Both the position numbers and the translations under genes were made by a program. From Microthyrium microscopicum (Eukaryota), in assembly GCA_010405405.1 (NCBI GenBank), contig MU004231.1:1805784-1869783 (forward strand): DNA of 64,000 nt. The letters run 5' to 3'. The notes beneath the pieces were generated by a model, which ran no database searches, was not told the DNA's origin, and saw only the letters and a program-made list of their open reading frames with translations. Positions 37,927 through 45,207 of this stretch are shown here, piece by piece. The stretch's first letter is position 1, and each line of letters begins with the position of its first letter.

Positions 37927-39195
37927 CTACACTTTGGCAAACTCGTTACGCAAATCTTCTTCAACGTTGTTCAAGTACAACCATCCCAGCTGCCCTTCCG
38001 GACTAGATCCATCGTCTTCATGCCAAATTTGCTCTGGAGGTAACAATTTCCGTTCCGCTTCGGATAGACGCATACTGTTCATTTTGTTGGTAAGTTCCAG
38101 AACTTTGTCGACCCGGCCTTGTCGATAGCTCTGCCAAATCTTCACTGCACTGCAAAGGTCCAATCCAGGTGAGAGTGAGCTGAGCACCACTGCCAAACAC
38201 AGTGCATCTTCAAATGCTTGGTTGGCTCCTTGACCGGCTGTTGGGGGAATAGCGTGCGCTGCATCACCTGTCATGATTACACGACCAGTATTGGATGACC
38301 ACTCCTCCATCTTTGGAACAGTGTGAAAGGGCCAGATGGACATGGAGTGTGTCTCTGGCTCACTCGCTTGTCGTTGACCCTGTTGTACGAGCTCTGACCA
38401 GTCGTTCATGTCTGCTTGATGTAGCTGAATGAGCTCAGTCTTTTCCTTGAGAAGCATATCCCAGCCTGACCGGTCTTGCAGCGGATACTTGAATTGACGT
38501 CCTACAAAGATCTCGTTGCCATCTGCGTTTTGTGGTGCGTAAACGAACGAACCAGCTTTGCCTTGAAGAGATACTGGTAGTGGGAAGCCTTCCGGAAAGT
38601 TGAATTTTGACTTGGGTACGGCGAATGTGACGCCAATGAAACCAGAGTATTTTGCAACAATTCCAGGATGGATATACTGTCGGACTTTGGAATGAATGCC
38701 GTCTGCGCCGATGAGAACTTCGGCGGTATCCTCAACGGCATCAACAAAAGCGAACTTGACTCCAGTCTCATCTTCAGATATGACTTTGTCAAACTTCTTT
38801 CCATATTCTATGGTTATGCCTTGCTCTTCAGTCATTTCGCGCAGAATACGAAGCAAGGTCTTGCGGTAGATGCGAAGCGCGTTGTAGCCATATTTCTGCT
38901 CGTGGCCAAAGTAATACGTTCCAAGCTTCTCAGAATGGTCGTCGTCGTTGATGAAAGTCAACGTACTGAAGTTGAACCCCTCTTTCACTATGCGTTGGTA
39001 TGCCCCAATGCCATCCAATACCCGAAGAGCATTAGGCGAAAGCATGATGGCTCCTCCAAAGTCGTACGTGGGAGGCCGTAGCTCATAGAACTTGGGCTTG
39101 ATGCCTCGTTGATTGAGAGCTAGTCCTAGAGTGAGACCACCAAGGCCTGCGCCAATAATGGTCACTGTCTTTGGTGGAGCTGTCATGGAAGCCAT
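37927..39195 (-). CDS. FAD-dependent monooxygenase (group A aromatic hydroxylase, salicylate-hydroxylase-like)
   Basis: IIGAGLGGL (GxGxxG), LIGADGIHSKVR (DG motif), GDAAHAIPPTAGQGANQAFED (GD motif); intronless. Confidence 0.92.
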   Translation of the reverse strand: MASMTAPPKTVTIIGAGLGGLTLGLALNQRGIKPKFYELRPPTYDFGGAIMLSPNALRVLDGIGAYQRIVKEGFNFSTLTFINDDDHSEKLGTYYFGHEQKYGYNALRIYRKTLLRILREMTEEQGITIEYGKKFDKVISEDETGVKFAFVDAVEDTAEVLIGADGIHSKVRQYIHPGIVAKYSGFIGVTFAVPKSKFNFPEGFPLPVSLQGKAGSFVYAPQNADGNEIFVGRQFKYPLQDRSGWDMLLKEKTELIQLHQADMNDWSELVQQGQRQASEPETHSMSIWPFHTVPKMEEWSSNTGRVIMTGDAAHAIPPTAGQGANQAFEDALCLAVVLSSLSPGLDLCSAVKIWQSYRQGRVDKVLELTNKMNSMRLSEAERKLLPPEQIWHEDDGSSPEGQLGWLYLNNVEEDLRNEFAKV

Positions 39196-39758
39196 AAGTA
39201 AAGCTGTGTGGGCTCTGAAAAGGGTGGTCTGGGTTGTTGGGTAGTGGGATAAGATCTTAACGATACTGTAACCGATTCGTTTGATTGATAAATCAAGATG
39301 GCTTTCTGAACAAGCAGAACTATCATCTTTATAGCTTGGTGTTGGTTCATGTTGATCCTCAACATCTCAGCCTTATTGGGTCTTATCGGCCGATGTAGCT
39401 CCTTCGGCCGAGTCCTCGCATCCGACAGATGAGAGCCGAAGCTCACCACTATCTCTTCCAACACGATTTCAGTAGTCTGCACCCCGTAGAGTGTCTGCAA
39501 ATGCAGCATGCCAGAGCTTTTCCATTTTTCAAATAGTGTGATTGCACTGAACAAGATCTGCATCGTTCCATCAGCTTTCCTGCCCACCATCGCGCTCGAA
39601 GTTAGCGTACGCTTCGAAATCCTGTGACCCTGTCGCATTCAACAAATGGTCTGGGCGTCTTGGGAAATAAAGCACTTGGTCACAGACGGGAGTATAAAGT
39701 AGACACTGCACTCGATGGAGCTTAGATTTGTGTCATCCAAGTTATAGACACCAAAATG

Positions 39759-42090
39759 CTAAATTGGTACGTTCGAATTGAACGGCAATGAAGGCAGGCC
39801 TGCCACATCCGCAAACAGTTCCAAGTTCCAGTCCCCCAAAGTCGGCTCAAAGTCAAGACTAAAGTCTTGATTCAAAGTTGGATCCATGAAGAAGTCTGAC
39901 TGAGGTGTATGAAAAGAGTCTGAAGAGCTATATTCCTGCCGTCGGTTCTGGGCATCGCTCTGATGTCGCTCTTTCGACCACGTCATTATCCTGATCACGG
40001 CGAAGTGCATGAGCTTTTTTCTGCCATCTTCAAGCCCTGTCTGCTTGGTGAGGTCCGCCGCGCCTGCTAAGACTAGTAATTGCTTCAGTACTGGCCTAAG
40101 ATCTGGCTTCCGTTTGATGATGGATCGCATAGTATCGTCTATCATTCTCCTGACAGCAGATTTGGGAACATCCAATGCCATTGCTGGGCGGGTTTGCTCA
40201 ATATCGAAGAGCTGCTTCGAGGCTTTGTCGACGAGATTCATGGCATAGCATGCGCAGTGGGCAGCACGAATCACATCATCGCCGTTTAACGCGTCGAAAA
40301 CTTTCCAAGCTTTATCGTCGGTTATTGCTTCGAGTTCCGAAAGATGTGGGTCCAAAGTGTCCGAATTTGACATAACGGCCATACAAAAGAACACACATTT
40401 TGTTGCTGTAACGGCAAACTCAGTGTTGCTTAGCAGATTAGCCATATCAAAGTACTGGAGGACATAAGTGAACAACAAGATCATCGGTCGACGATAGCAC
40501 ATGTCCATCATTACCGATTGGAAGATCATGGATTGTTCTGATATTGTGTGGAACTTTTGCATCGTTGCTGATCGATAGAGTTCTAATTCTCCCAATAGTT
40601 TGTTGACTTCCAAAAAGGATGCTTCGCACTTGGAAACAATATTCAATGCCTGAATGCGCAAAGGCAAAGACTGAGATAAGGCCACTTGAAAAGAGGTCCT
40701 TTTTCCGTCTTCTCCATGTGAGATGGGATCGACAGAACTATCATATATGTCTTCTTCCTTGGGAAAATGGCAGGTATAAGTGATGGATTGAAGTAAACTT
40801 GGCATACCACAAGACAGAGAAGCTTCAAGATCTAATTCTGCAATAGTGTACCATATGCGACGTCGAAGTTCTGCTTGAAATGGGGACATCTTTGGGTCTA
40901 GCTCTTCCGGATCTATTTGCAGGCGTAGAGTGAGAGCCAACCGCACAAGGTCTCCAGTTGCCCTCCATACATCAGTAGAAGGGTATGCCAAAAGCCGTTT
41001 TGCTAGAACAAGAAGGCAACTGGTCAAGATCGCATTCGGTTGAGAGCGCTGTTTGGAGCCCAAAGAGGACAACCAGTGGTCCACCATAGAGCAGACCTTA
41101 GAAGGATTAGCTGAAAAATCGTTAGGGACATCCGAGTGCTGGTGCTTGTTTATTTGAGCCCCGATAAGTGCCGCTAACGCAAACTGTGGGATGAATGCTG
41201 CCCATAGAGAATCATCCATCGCTTGCCGGTTGTCGAGGAATTGATGGTATTTTCGAATGAAAGTCGTCAAATGCAATATCCGATAAGGTCTTTCAAAATA
41301 TGTATAGTATTGATTCACATACTGATCCAAAGTGTGTCGAGGCACTGCTGCTAGTATAGACATCAGATCGACATCTCCCCGAACTTGAAGGCTCTGTTTC
41401 TTTTTTGGAAACATGATTTGCAATTGCGCAAAATCCGCCTTGAAGGTTGGATCATCAAGAGTATGACATGAGTATTGTGCAACCTCTGGAAACTGTTTAA
41501 GGAGGTCAGCTAGGTAGAAAACAACTTGGAGAATGCACTTTAAGCAAGATATTAGAAACAATAGTGAAATTGAAGGTGAAGAAAAGGATATAAATCGACG
41601 GCATTGTTGAAAGCCCTACCCGTAGGACGCTTACCAAAGCCATAAGGGAGCGAGTATTGTTCAACCCATGATACTGTAGGTAAGATGGCTTCTTGATTTC
41701 ACCCGAGGAATCCGGTACTGTAGACGCTGTAATTGGCAAAAGATTATCTGCTCGGCGTTGGAAAAGTTTCTCTAGCCTTTGGACTTGTGTGCGGAGTTCA
41801 GCTATTTCGCGTGCGCCAGAAGGTACAAGAGCAGATGTAGGAAGCACACCATCCGCTGGACTGGGCTCGCCCGAACGCGACTCCGAGACTCTGGAAGGCG
41901 AGACAGCTTCATTGAAAGAGTCCCGTACATTACGACTCGTTTCATCATAACCGCAGCTATCCGCGCGGTGATATTTAACACATTGTGAACACGGTTGTTC
42001 TCTGTCGCATTTGAGCTTCTTCGAGCGGCAGTTGAGACATGATTTTACTGGTCGTGGACGCTTTCGAGGAACAAGAGATGCAGAAGACAT
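39759..42090 (-). CDS. Zn(II)2Cys6 transcription factor with fungal-specific TF middle domain, 2 exons
   Basis: CLNCRSKKLKCDREQPCSQCVKYHRADSC binuclear cluster; RILHLTTF; LVRLALTLRLQIDP...ELRRRIWYTIAELD...SCGMP. Confidence 0.92.
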
Positions 42091-43023
42091 GGCATGATAA
42101 ACAGATACAATTATACCACGAGTGTTTCGTTGATTTTGTGACAGTGGAGGAGGTTGGACAAAGAGATGAAGTTGGAGAAGCAGTCGCGTAAAATCATTTT
42201 GGCAGGAGAGATGAACATCGACTACCGTTTTTGCTTTTTTTCAGCCTTGTCACGCTCATTGTGTCTATGTCTTCAAAACACATCGTTAGACATACATGCA
42301 TTGATCAACAAATAAGTAAAATGGAATGGTAGGTTCTCCAAATTGAGAATCCAAAATCCCAATAAAGCTAGATATCTTTTAAAACGAAGCAAAACCAACG
42401 ATGCTAACACAACTTTGTTCTTAAGCATCGATTATCAAAAATAGCTCCTAATTTCGCCTTTGACATTGAGCTGATACGGAGCAACATGCAGTTTGGTGTT
42501 GACATCAAGTGGCCAAACTCTCAGTGTTGACTGCAGGTGCCTAAGGGCGATGAGTAGAGACGAGCATCACGCAGTCACTCGCCACAAACCATAAGACTTT
42601 TATCAATTGCCACCACCTTAAGATATCACATGTATGAGCGTACAGAATATGCCCTGAAAACGTCTGAATGGCACAAATTACATTAAATCTCCACACTTGC
42701 CCCACAGATTCCCCACGATTTCAATCAATGAACAAGCCCCCTTTGAAGGGCCATGGATGGTTTCTAACTGCATACGAACGTTTCGTGGTATCATTATCCC
42801 CAGATCCTATACTAAACTATCACTGCAAGCTCAGATCGTAATATATCTACGTATGATGTCCAAAATAGCGCGATTGCATTGGGCATTAGTCCAACTTTTT
42901 TTCAGCAATACTTCTGTTCGTCCGTAACGACCTCATCACGTCAAATATGTATGTCTTGGTTAAGTACCAGAGCTCGACCTGTAAGCTTTTTCAGGAAGGA
43001 AATCCAAGTTACTTCAACTCAGA

Positions 43024-44074
43024 ATGTTGCTCTATAGTATATTTGCTACCTTGGTAGCCAACATTGCCATCACTTCAGCAGCTGATCCGCCACCACCACA
43101 GCCTCTTCTTCTCTCCGATGCCAAAAAGTTACTGGTTCCAGATTATCCCAAAGAGGAACGCGGCTGGGTCCAAAACAGCGATGGCATGTACTACATCTCA
43201 AGTAAGTTTTGGTCCACCACCACCGCGATCCAACCCATCAGCTAACCTCGTCTCCAAGCCAACACGCACAGTAAGCAAACCTCCACATCCCCAGCTAACC
43301 AGCTCTCTGACTGCTTCAAGTGCCCGGAATAACCGGCGCGATGATTGACTGGTGGTTTGGCTACGTAACCACCACAGAACAATACATCCCTTGGCACCCC
43401 CTCGACCACGTCTACAGCGAATGGTCTGGCCCACACGGTAACTCCACCTACATCAACGGCAATCATCTCGTGTACGAGAAGATTGGCGGCGAACTCCAGA
43501 AGCTGCGTATCAACTTCCTCACACCCGCCAAATACTTTGGTGAAGGCTACAAGGGCTTATGGAAGACGGCGAATGTGAGCACGGCGGCGGTTGGCACCGT
43601 GAGCTTCTGGGAGGGCAAAGGAAAGGGGGTGGCTGGGTTCCAGGTGGGCCACCTATGTCATTTGATTCATGAGGAGGCGGATGGGATACGGATGAGGAGT
43701 CGATTTTGGTTGGGGGATGTTGATGGGTTGCCGTTGGATAAGGAGACAAGAAGTTCGATTGTGCCGATGAATTTGGTTACAGGATTGGGTAAGTTGATTC
43801 AGTGGTTTGAATGATGAAGGATCTGCGCTGTATCATGACATGCTGGCGAGCTGGCTTGATGTGATATGGTTGCAGATGGTGAGAGATGGAGTGATGGTGA
43901 ATTCGAGAGCCTGGGCAGTAATTATATTGTGCTAACAAGATTTCAGTTAAACACGCGACTGAAGAGATGGGCTACTTGAAGGGATTCTTAGCGGACTTGT
44001 ATCGTAAGGAAAACAAGATTGGACCCAAGAAGAGAGGAGAGAAGGTCATCAAGCCATGGTCACACGATTTTTAG
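43024..44074 (+). CDS. PhlG/phloretin-hydrolase-family C-C hydrolase with predicted signal peptide (exons 43024-43201, 43259-43270, 43321-43788, 43947-44074)
   Basis: Spliced product has ERGW...YYISTNTHMPGITGAMIDWWF, YIPWHPLDH, HLVYEKIGG, GHLCH...GIRMRSRFWLG and LVKHATEEMGYLKGFL, matching the DAPG-hydrolase family with its H/E/H/E metal ligands. N-terminus MLLYSIFATLVANIAITSA. Confidence 0.85.
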
Positions 44075-44344
44075 TCATTGTCGAAACGCCGTTGGATACT
44101 TGTACGAGATATGATAATGCCCACACGGCGTGTTAGGAGCAGATAGATGAAAAAAACAACGATATCCACTTCAAAGACTTCACATGGTCCATGAAACCCA
44201 TCCGATGTCGTATCCGAAAGAACTCTCAGCTCACAGCGGCAGCGCTTGCATCATCCAAATCCCTCAGTTTATCACGTTCTGATAAGTCTCTTTGAGGATC
44301 TGAATTATTTCCTATCCCTTTATTTCCCAAGCAGCGTCACCGAT

Positions 44345-45207
44345 ATGCAATTTTCCGCACATACAATTTGGTTTGCTATAGGCAAGACAATTGTATATGC
44401 TCTAGTTGCTAGAAATACGACATCACCCACGTAAGCCTAACCTTGTATGAATATCTGCCAGCACTGACGCTATCTAGAGGTCATTATATACCTCCGCCAG
44501 GTTGCCCATTCGGGATGGGAGGCCCAGAAGGAATATACCGAGATCCTCCTAGACCGCTCGCAGGTCCATGTATAGCAAAATCTCGTGAGCACCACAATAC
44601 AATTTGCGATATGTCTGACCTTTGGCATCATAGTACTATGTAGCAACACCGGAGGCCTGCCATGTTGCGGCACTAATCCGTGCGATGTTGACAAGACTTA
44701 CCAACCCCGGAACAGATGCTGTGTTGGATCAGGCCGTAAGCAATGGACCACGATCTCACTGCCTCCTAAGTGAGTCAAACAAGGAGTCGGGAAAACGCTG
44801 ATAGATATTTGAACAGACGCAGTGCAACCAGCCCAAGATTGTTGCGATGACAGAGATAGACGTTCGGTGAACAGCGGAACGCGTACCATATGCTGCATTC
44901 GTGGTGGTGGTAGGTATAGTTCTTCATGAACAAATTGGCATACATTGCTGAGCTGGTTTATAGATCCAAATCCCAGCGGCCCAAATGATATCGGTTCTGC
45001 AGCTTGCTGCGGCAATGCTAGATCTGGTCCCAATAGCTCTCAGGTGTGCTGCTACCAAGGCGGTGGTGAGTTTGGTGTGTACATGGTATAAAGACAGCGA
45101 CTAATCTTGTAGAATACGTTAATCCTAGCCAGGCTGGCTACCCGCATATTTGCTGTGATGGTATGTCGCCGATCGGTTTTTTTCCTTTCATAGCATGTCG
45201 AGGATGA
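44345..45207 (+). CDS. Cys-rich di-cysteine-repeat protein, copy 1 (194 aa, 19 Cys; exons 44345-44430, 44478-44584, 44634-44735, 44817-44909, 44964-45065, 45113-45207)
   Basis: All five introns are GT-AG with CTRAY-like branch points and the frame stays open: MQFSAHTIWFAIGKTIVYALVARNTTSPT-GHYIPPPGCPFGMGGPEGIYRDPPRPLAGPCIAKS-LLCSNTGGLPCCGTNPCDVDKTYQPRNRCCVGSG-HAVQPAQDCCDDRDRRSVNSGTRTICCIRGG-DPNPSGPNDIGSAACCGNARSGPNSSQVCCYQGG-EYVNPSQAGYPHICCDGMSPIGFFPFIACRG. Confidence 0.85.

Follow-up and report, generated by a model that had tools for sequence, protein, structure and literature searches.

Two enzymes of the DAPG hydrolase family have been solved structurally, PhlG from Pseudomonas (PDB entry 3HWP) and the phloretin hydrolase Phy, known from Eubacterium ramulus and from the Mycobacterium abscessus structures 5XE5 and 5XEY. 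Phy splits phloretin into phloroglucinol and phloretic acid. The N-terminal domain of PhlG plays a role in dimerisation. Among fungi, Fusarium has been reported to deacetylate DAPG and Aspergillus to have phloretin hydrolase activity. The cleavage of phloretin by fungi is known from feeding studies, with no gene assigned to it, and our full-text literature searches brought up no publication about a fungal protein of the DAPG_hydrolase family. PhlG itself is a zinc-dependent hydrolase of the Bet v1 fold and is described as highly specific for DAPG (PMC8003664). Here we describe a protein encoded in a window of 64,000 nucleotides from contig MU004231.1 of Microthyrium microscopicum, the whole of the stretch that was analyzed. 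By its sequence, it is a new member of this family from a fungus and falls in a short subfamily, apart from both PhlG and Phy.

The gene lies on the plus strand, from a start ATG at positions 43024–43026 to a TAG stop codon at 44072–44074, and is composed of four coding exons. Exon 1 (43024–43201) encodes residues 1–59 plus one nucleotide: residues 1–20 are hydrophobic, residues 21–27 form a Pro-rich linker, and from about residue 28 onward the sequence belongs to the core that is conserved in the family. It is followed by a micro-exon of only 12 nucleotides (43259–43270), flanked by intron 1 (43202–43258) on the 5′ side and by intron 2 (43271–43320) on the 3′ side. The micro-exon is testified by a spacing that is common to every aligned homologue and by 12 inserted letters in an RNA contig. 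Exon 3 (43321–43788) carries the motifs MIDWWFGY, WHPLDH (His93, codon 43407–43409) and YEKIG (Glu116, codon 43476–43478) and the invariant His177. Exon 4 (43947–44074) carries KHATEE (His222, codon 43952–43954, and Glu226, codon 43964–43966), the C-terminal helix and the stop codon. Intron 3 (43789–43946), which separates the two, has GT..AG borders and a branch-like CTAAC. The spliced four-exon product is identical to a database protein of 261 amino acids, hypothetical protein BT63DRAFT_475699 [Microthyrium microscopicum], hereafter P0004. A three-exon model with a product of 257 amino acids was dropped, because P0004 has four additional residues, TNTH, which are encoded by the micro-exon. 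Contamination was likewise rejected as the source of the gene on account of its spliceosomal introns and of the ordinary fungal neighbours on the same 4.5 Mb contig. The gene is real, and its frame is intact over 261 codons and four exons. A first-pass annotation made from the DNA letters had placed an intron-containing gene at 43024..44074 and had listed the motifs WHPLDH, YEKIG and KHATEE; the gene was indeed found there, with three introns, and all three motifs are present in the translated exons.

P0004 matches the Pfam family PF18089 (DAPG_hydrolase) with an E-value of 8.6e-39 and a score of 133.8 bits, for a cut-off of 22.7, and the match covers positions 4–223 of the 223 profile positions; exon 3 on its own scores 80.5 bits. 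At the level of sequence, the assignment to the DAPG_hydrolase family is secure. When the PDB sequences were searched with P0004, phloretin hydrolase (5xe5/5xey, E 1.4e-14) and PhlG (3hwp, E 2.8e-12) were retrieved, and no other entry matched. The AlphaFold2 model of P0004, computed from an alignment of 132 sequences, has a mean pLDDT of 89.9 and a pTM of 0.84. In a Foldseek comparison, this model retrieves 5xey/5xe5 at the top (E 7e-15) and then 3hwp (E 8e-14), with Bet v1/START-fold proteins ranking below these solved family enzymes. P0004 is confidently predicted to adopt a Bet v1-like fold, as do phloretin hydrolase and PhlG.

Over its full length, a profile built from 23 members of the family could be aligned with each of the two solved enzymes. 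In this alignment, His93, Glu116, His222 and Glu226 of P0004 correspond to the PhlG chain residues His137, Glu168, His278 and Glu282, and the pair His222/Glu226 corresponds to His259/Glu263 of Phy. The zinc ligands of PhlG, which He et al. are said to have given in 2010 as H129, E160, H270 and E274, differ from these chain indices by a constant offset of 8 at all four positions; a shift of this kind is what a tag would produce, and it speaks for the mapping of the ligands. Residues His177, His222, Glu225 and Glu226 are invariant in all 23 aligned sequences, and His89, His93, His112 and Glu116 are kept in at least 90% of the same alignment. The first-pass annotation had counted all four likely metal ligands as present, and the positions in question are the four that align with those of PhlG. 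With these positions conserved, P0004 would possess what an active metal-dependent C–C hydrolase needs, and we infer that it is equipped for such an activity.

Several features set P0004 apart from the two solved enzymes, to which it is 25–26% identical. Its score against the NCBI equivalog model of PhlG (NF047887) is 48.8 bits, below the cut-off of 600. The alignment to 3hwp opens at chain residue 72–73 and that to Phy at chain residue 58–60, in both cases opposite residues 29–30 of P0004, so the N-terminal domain is absent from P0004, in which only 28 unrelated residues precede the part that can be aligned with PhlG. In the ORFs of the window that were scanned, no phl-type gene turned up. 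Model score, domain composition and position in the trees described below place P0004 in a separate short subfamily, and not among the orthologs of PhlG or Phy. The first-pass annotation had proposed a fungal homologue of PhlG and phloretin hydrolase; this stands as far as the family is concerned, the HMM comparison giving the PF18089 match reported above, but P0004 is not the PhlG or Phy version of it, as indicated by the low equivalog score and the separate clade. Given the high specificity for DAPG ascribed to PhlG (PMC8003664), activity of P0004 on DAPG cannot be assumed.

A library search with P0004 returned 584 representative clusters with E ≤ 1e-3, 211 with E ≤ 1e-10 and 13 with E ≤ 1e-30. 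The closest relatives are ascomycete proteins, 44–74% identical, from Venturia nashicola, Aulographum hederae, several Penicillium species, Phialocephala subalpina and Tothia fuscella, and bacterial relatives, 45–50% identical, were found in Bradyrhizobium, Pedobacter, Methylocella and Myxococcota/Binatia metagenome-assembled genomes (MAGs). Two maximum-likelihood trees, one made quickly from 76 rows and the other built with more care from 51 rows, gave the same picture. The PhlG/Phy side of both is made up of library representatives that strongly match the solved enzymes, rather than of the PDB chains themselves; among the Phy-like ones, P0064 matches 5xe5 with an E-value of 3e-34 and P0110 with 8e-46. 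P0068, with an E-value of 3e-13 only, was discarded as a Phy-like representative. All fungal sequences fall in one clade (22 rows with a support of 100 in the larger tree, 21 rows with 100/99 in the smaller one), where P0004 is the sister of P0008 (support of 100), with which it shares 64% identity. The terminal branch of P0004 is not long, 0.30 for a median of 0.39. The Phy/PhlG-like representatives form a separate clade, with a support of 96 in the 76-row tree and 100/97 in the 51-row tree. When this clade is used as the root, which is assumed and not inferred, the fungal clade nests in the bacterial short subfamily, and the 40-row set enclosing it has a support of 96/95; the support for P0066/P0068/P0094 as the immediate sister of the fungal clade is weak (81/91). 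A horizontal origin, for which the first-pass annotation had looked to a phylogeny, would fit this nesting among short bacterial relatives. With the root so placed, the trees fit one old transfer from bacteria to filamentous ascomycetes, followed by intron gain.

The neighborhood of the gene contains two further genes of interest, both on the minus strand. A Zn2Cys6 transcription factor, with Zn_clus and Fungal_trans domains recognized by Pfam in two ORF pieces (39759–42240), is divergent from the hydrolase gene, and a class-A flavoprotein aromatic hydroxylase of the FAD_binding_3 family (37927–39366) was identified from Pfam and from its PDB relatives. The nearest solved relatives of this hydroxylase are 6-hydroxynicotinate 3-monooxygenase (E 8e-27), 4-hydroxybenzoate decarboxylase and salicylate hydroxylase, and its distant PDB matches, from the same Pfam family, include TropB (E 6e-12), SorC and CtdE. 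The other nearby genes are housekeeping ones, such as those for HMG-CoA synthase, Paf1 and DnaJ. No MFS transporter was found in the window ORFs scanned, and no PKS, NRPS or terpene synthase among the scanned window ORFs of at least 130 amino acids. The FAD_binding_3 and Zn2Cys6 families are both abundant in ascomycete genomes, and their adjacency could be partly due to chance.

Related loci were sought in metagenomes, where the best 80 of 516 relatives of the hydrolase are mostly bacterial; 15 of them were examined. Among these 15, the loci L068–L072 look fungal, and L069, L071 and L072 are long enough to show their gene context. In L069, the order is FAD_binding_3 hydroxylase, Fungal_trans regulator, MFS transporter and hydrolase, the last having 74% identity to the Phialocephala protein. 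L072 carries an MFS transporter, a Zn_clus/Fungal_trans regulator, a FAD_binding_3 hydroxylase and the hydrolase, then a GST and a DyP peroxidase, while L071 repeats the layout of L069 as judged from the ORF layout only, without Pfam. The hydroxylases of L069 and L072 are orthologous (57% identity), so that the two loci represent one shared cluster type. Orthology to these loci was rejected for both window partners: the window hydroxylase is 34–36% identical to theirs over about 50 residues only, and the transcription factors show no similarity. The partners are thus of the same kinds without being orthologous, and would have been recruited at least twice, as counted on three fungal loci only. 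The presence of a hydroxylase and a regulator beside the gene, with an MFS transporter in addition elsewhere, suggests the breakdown of a phenolic ketone.

The bacterial context was analyzed in six loci, with 41 of their 55 computed ORFs compared with Pfam. An MFS transporter gene is directly upstream of the hydrolase gene in two of the six, from Bradyrhizobium (L034) and Pedobacter (L021), a periplasmic solute-binding protein adjoins the hydrolase in two (L042 and L048), and AraC regulators are present in two. The Bradyrhizobium loci also contain SDR, BKACE and 3-hydroxyacyl-CoA dehydrogenase genes. The ORFs compared from locus L013 gave no Pfam matches. Taken together, the bacterial and fungal contexts suggest the import and intracellular breakdown of a small aromatic ketone; indeed, MFS transporters beside the homologous fungal genes and in two of the six bacterial loci fit an intracellular enzyme.

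The transcript data come from one run, labelled "RNA?" by guess, in which the contig depths are low (3–4.5), and its contigs leave positions 43461–43790 and 44030–44337 uncovered. Contig 1 (392 nucleotides, depth 4.5) joins 42905–42980, 43038–43201, the micro-exon and 43321–43460. Its three GT..AG joints, found in a single contig, show that spliced RNA is present in the run. The first segment is a 5′ exon (42905–42980, plus strand) seen in this RNA contig only. Read in the hydrolase frame, this exon is untranslated, with a TAA at 42961–42963 closing the frame, and it contains ATGs at 42947 and 42951. The following 57-nucleotide GT..AG intron (42981–43037, plus strand), removed in the contig, holds the first 14 nucleotides of the coding sequence, including the ATG at 43024–43026. 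The spliced isoform therefore lacks an in-frame ATG before Met55, and four out-of-frame ATGs come first (42947, 42951, 43118 and 43181). Met55 was rejected as a functional start since the protein would lose a helix (residues 30–37) and a strand (residues 47–50) that belong to confidently predicted parts of the fold (residues 30–65); for this reason, the isoform without 42981–43037 is probably non-productive. The ATG at 43024 is the only one in frame upstream of the conserved core, so a functional protein must come from transcripts in which the intron is kept or whose start lies inside it, and these would carry the hydrophobic N-terminus. In an intron-retaining transcript that starts at or before 42905, the ATGs at 42947 and 42951 would still precede 43024. 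No contig retaining 42981–43037 was seen in this run, the coverage of the region being thin, with one contig at depth 4.5. Contig 2 (43791–44029) runs unspliced through intron 3, the retention of which would end the frame at 43812–43814, before KHATEE and hence before His222 and Glu226; this contig may derive from pre-mRNA or from DNA that was present in the run. With a retained intron 3 and a contig devoid of the start codon, the run does not imply an efficient output of full-length protein.

The N-terminus of P0004 reads MLLYSIFATLVANIAITSAADPPPPQ. Its first 20 residues include no charged residue, and the mean Kyte-Doolittle hydrophobicity is 1.89 over residues 2–17, with a 12-residue maximum of 2.13. 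In the segment formed by MLLYSIFATLVANIAITSA and the subsequent ADPPPP, the small residues Thr and Ala occupy positions −3 and −1. The call of a signal-like N-terminus was made with a crude rule applied by hand, a 12-residue hydrophobicity threshold of 2.0, rather than with a trained predictor. By this rule, such an N-terminus is found in two of the 22 members of the fungal clade, P0004 and P0051, which are not sisters, so that the tree needs two changes. That of P0051 is more clearly signal-like than that of P0004 and also precedes a Pro-rich linker, whereas the sister protein P0008 has no hydrophobic N-terminus and begins with MAQASVDPPGP, roughly at residue 15 of P0004. In the AlphaFold2 model of P0004, residues 1–20 have pLDDT values of 47–58 and no helix is predicted. 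By eye, Sec-, lipoprotein- or twin-arginine-like N-termini are seen in the bacterial representatives P0075, P0081, P0092, P0110, P0126, P0136 and P0140; P0110 falls in the Phy/PhlG-like clade. Judging from these N-termini, exported bacterial members of the family appear to exist, and a secreted fungal form would then not be unique. The hydrophobic N-terminus and Pro-rich linker noted in the first-pass annotation are thus present as described, and its signal peptide holds as a resemblance in sequence, but one that is absent from P0008 and from 20 of the 22 fungal homologues and whose ATG is spliced out in one contig. The evidence on secretion cuts both ways, with the low conservation and the spliced-out ATG on one side and the only in-frame ATG on the other, and we regard the secretion of P0004 as doubtful.

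The reading that we prefer, and consider probable, is that P0004 is a Bet v1-fold metalloenzyme of PF18089 from a paralogous short subfamily, which would act in an inducible pathway that breaks down or detoxifies a phenolic ketone. If P0004 works as PhlG and phloretin hydrolase do, a bound metal (Zn2+ in PhlG) would activate water, and the enzyme would cleave the C–C bond that joins a polyhydroxylated aromatic ring to the acyl carbonyl, in a retro-Friedel-Crafts or retro-Claisen hydrolysis. A monophyletic clade of filamentous ascomycetes that nests among short bacterial relatives and, like them, is devoid of the N-terminal domain would represent such a paralogous subfamily and not PhlG or Phy. 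The inducible pathway would comprise uptake and then degradation or detoxification of the phenolic ketone, for example a dihydrochalcone or an acylphloroglucinol. The N-terminal extension would be a lineage-specific, signal-peptide-like addition, translated only if the 57-nucleotide intron is kept or if the transcript starts within it.

This reading has to be weighed against three others. In line with the first-pass annotation, P0004 could be secreted by means of a cleavable signal peptide and destroy DAPG or phloretin outside the hypha, which we consider unlikely. The uncharged hydrophobic opening of the genomic ORF with Thr and Ala at −3 and −1, the ATG at 43024 as the sole in-frame start before the core (a start at Met55 would truncate the predicted fold), the clearer signal-like N-terminus of P0051, the window devoid of an MFS importer beside the gene and the bacterial members with Sec-, Tat- or lipoprotein-like N-termini all point in that direction. 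They are met by the absence of the hydrophobic N-terminus in P0008 and most of the clade, with the two independent changes that this entails, by the splicing out of the ATG-bearing intron in the sole transcript contig, by the two upstream ATGs that precede 43024 even when the intron is kept, in any transcript beginning at 42905 or further upstream, and by the low pLDDT of residues 1–20, where a helix is not predicted. Moreover, as P0004 is not an ortholog of PhlG or Phy, DAPG and phloretin are guesses as substrates.

The same transcript data bear on the possibility that expression of the gene is poor or that the gene is in decay, with the ancestral start lost, most transcripts non-productive and the N-terminus an accidental read-in without function. 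Consistent with this are the start-less RNA contig with its four out-of-frame ATGs, the retention of intron 3 in contig 2, which would truncate the protein before His222 and Glu226, the low contig depths and the start of P0008 at about residue 15 of P0004. However, the 261-codon frame is unbroken over four exons, all invariant family residues are kept on a branch shorter than the median, and a single run of low depth is no proof that productive transcripts are lacking, which makes decay quite improbable. As to the neighborhood, P0004 might instead serve a secondary-metabolite pathway, in tailoring or off-loading through retro-Claisen polyketide trimming, and not in catabolism. TropB, SorC and CtdE among the distant matches of the adjacent hydroxylase and a pathway-type Zn2Cys6 regulator next to the hydrolase would suit this role, but the scanned window ORFs of at least 130 amino acids include no PKS, NRPS or terpene synthase and the neighbors are housekeeping genes. 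In addition, the hydroxylase is closer to catabolic decarboxylative hydroxylases than to TropB, and the bacterial relatives lie beside importers and AraC regulators; we thus hold this role to be very improbable. It is just as improbable, in our opinion, that the ascomycete clade is the fungal phloretin-type enzyme splitting dihydrochalcones or acylphloroglucinols, to which Microthyrium has added an export signal switched by retention of the 57-nucleotide intron, yielding either an exported enzyme or none. Most likely, P0004 helps to degrade or detoxify a phenolic ketone in an inducible manner.

Together with the hydroxylase, regulator and transporter genes that recur beside it, the fungal clade provides a concrete set of candidate genes for phloretin cleavage, and the same set could account for the tolerance of fungi to acylphloroglucinol antibiotics. 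The value of the Microthyrium gene itself is modest, the idea of its secretion being weak. Databases already label P0004 automatically as a DAPG-hydrolase-domain protein.

Compared with the known systems, P0004 is nearest to Phy among the solved enzymes. Both belong to the same Pfam family, and Phy is its best match in sequence (E 1.4e-14) as well as in fold (E 7e-15, TM 0.67), with the same positions of the His/Glu/His/Glu ligands and, presumably, the same metal-dependent C–C hydrolysis of an aryl ketone. They differ by the N-terminal region of about 55–60 residues of Phy, which is missing from P0004, by their location in different clades of the trees and by the eukaryotic gene of P0004 with its three introns. 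PhlG and P0004 belong to one family and agree in the Bet v1-like fold of the catalytic domain and in the positions of the four ligands. The small N-terminal domain of PhlG is lacking in P0004, and the scanned window ORFs show no phl gene cluster near the gene. The nearest non-fungal relatives are short bacterial proteins of about 208–221 amino acids, annotated as "DAPG hydrolase family proteins", which are 42–50% identical to P0004 and have the same short architecture, opening at a conserved L-x-DA-x-LL helix. Unlike P0004, which has both introns and an N-terminal extension, these bacterial relatives are intronless and start without such an extension.

The 5′ region of the hydrolase gene carries a 57-nt GT..AG intron (42981–43037) that encloses the annotated start codon and is spliced out in the sole RNA contig covering this region. 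With this intron removed, the hydrolase frame has no ATG ahead of M55, the next in-frame methionine after the annotated start, while its retention in the transcript provides the hydrolase with a signal-like N-terminus. Splicing of 42981–43037 could act as an on/off switch or as a localisation switch, or could merely give rise to a non-productive isoform. A second contig from the run that yielded the spliced one (43791–44029) begins 2 nt within intron 3 and reads colinear across it. Retention of intron 3 would introduce a stop in the hydrolase frame at 43812–43814, with the loss of two metal ligands. The unspliced contig may derive from pre-mRNA, or from DNA among the sequenced material.

Directly downstream of the hydrolase, the plus strand carries an apparent small intron-containing gene (44345–45100), the start of which is overlapped by another contig of the RNA run (44338–44400). 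Its N-terminus, MQFSAHTIWFAIGKTIVYALVA, is signal-peptide-like and is followed by ORF pieces rich in Cys and Pro; a Pfam search with the ORF pieces of this gene returned no match. The product may be a small secreted cysteine-rich protein.

In one fungal metagenome contig, L072, the hydrolase cluster is followed by genes for a glutathione S-transferase and a DyP-type peroxidase (L072:11070–14685), both typical of the metabolism of phenolic or lignin-derived compounds. In the Bradyrhizobium genome G001, the intact copy is followed, about 6.9 kb downstream, by a second, broken PF18089 match (locus L067). This nearby match is limited to profile positions 3–92, is interrupted by one TAG and one TAA, and looks like a decayed tandem duplicate.

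Within the PF18089 family, five longer members, P0073, P0077, P0100, P0166, and P0196 (about 325–374 aa), start with MG or MAS followed by a Cys/Ser-rich stretch resembling N-myristoylation or palmitoylation sites, which hints at another eukaryotic branch, putatively membrane-tethered. Seven bacterial-looking members (P0075, P0081, P0092, P0110, P0126, P0136, and P0140) have N-termini resembling Sec, lipoprotein, or twin-arginine export signals, and one of them, P0110, falls in the clade of phloretin hydrolase and DAPG hydrolase relatives (Phy/PhlG-like). These N-termini argue that exported members of this supposedly “intracellular” enzyme family probably already exist.
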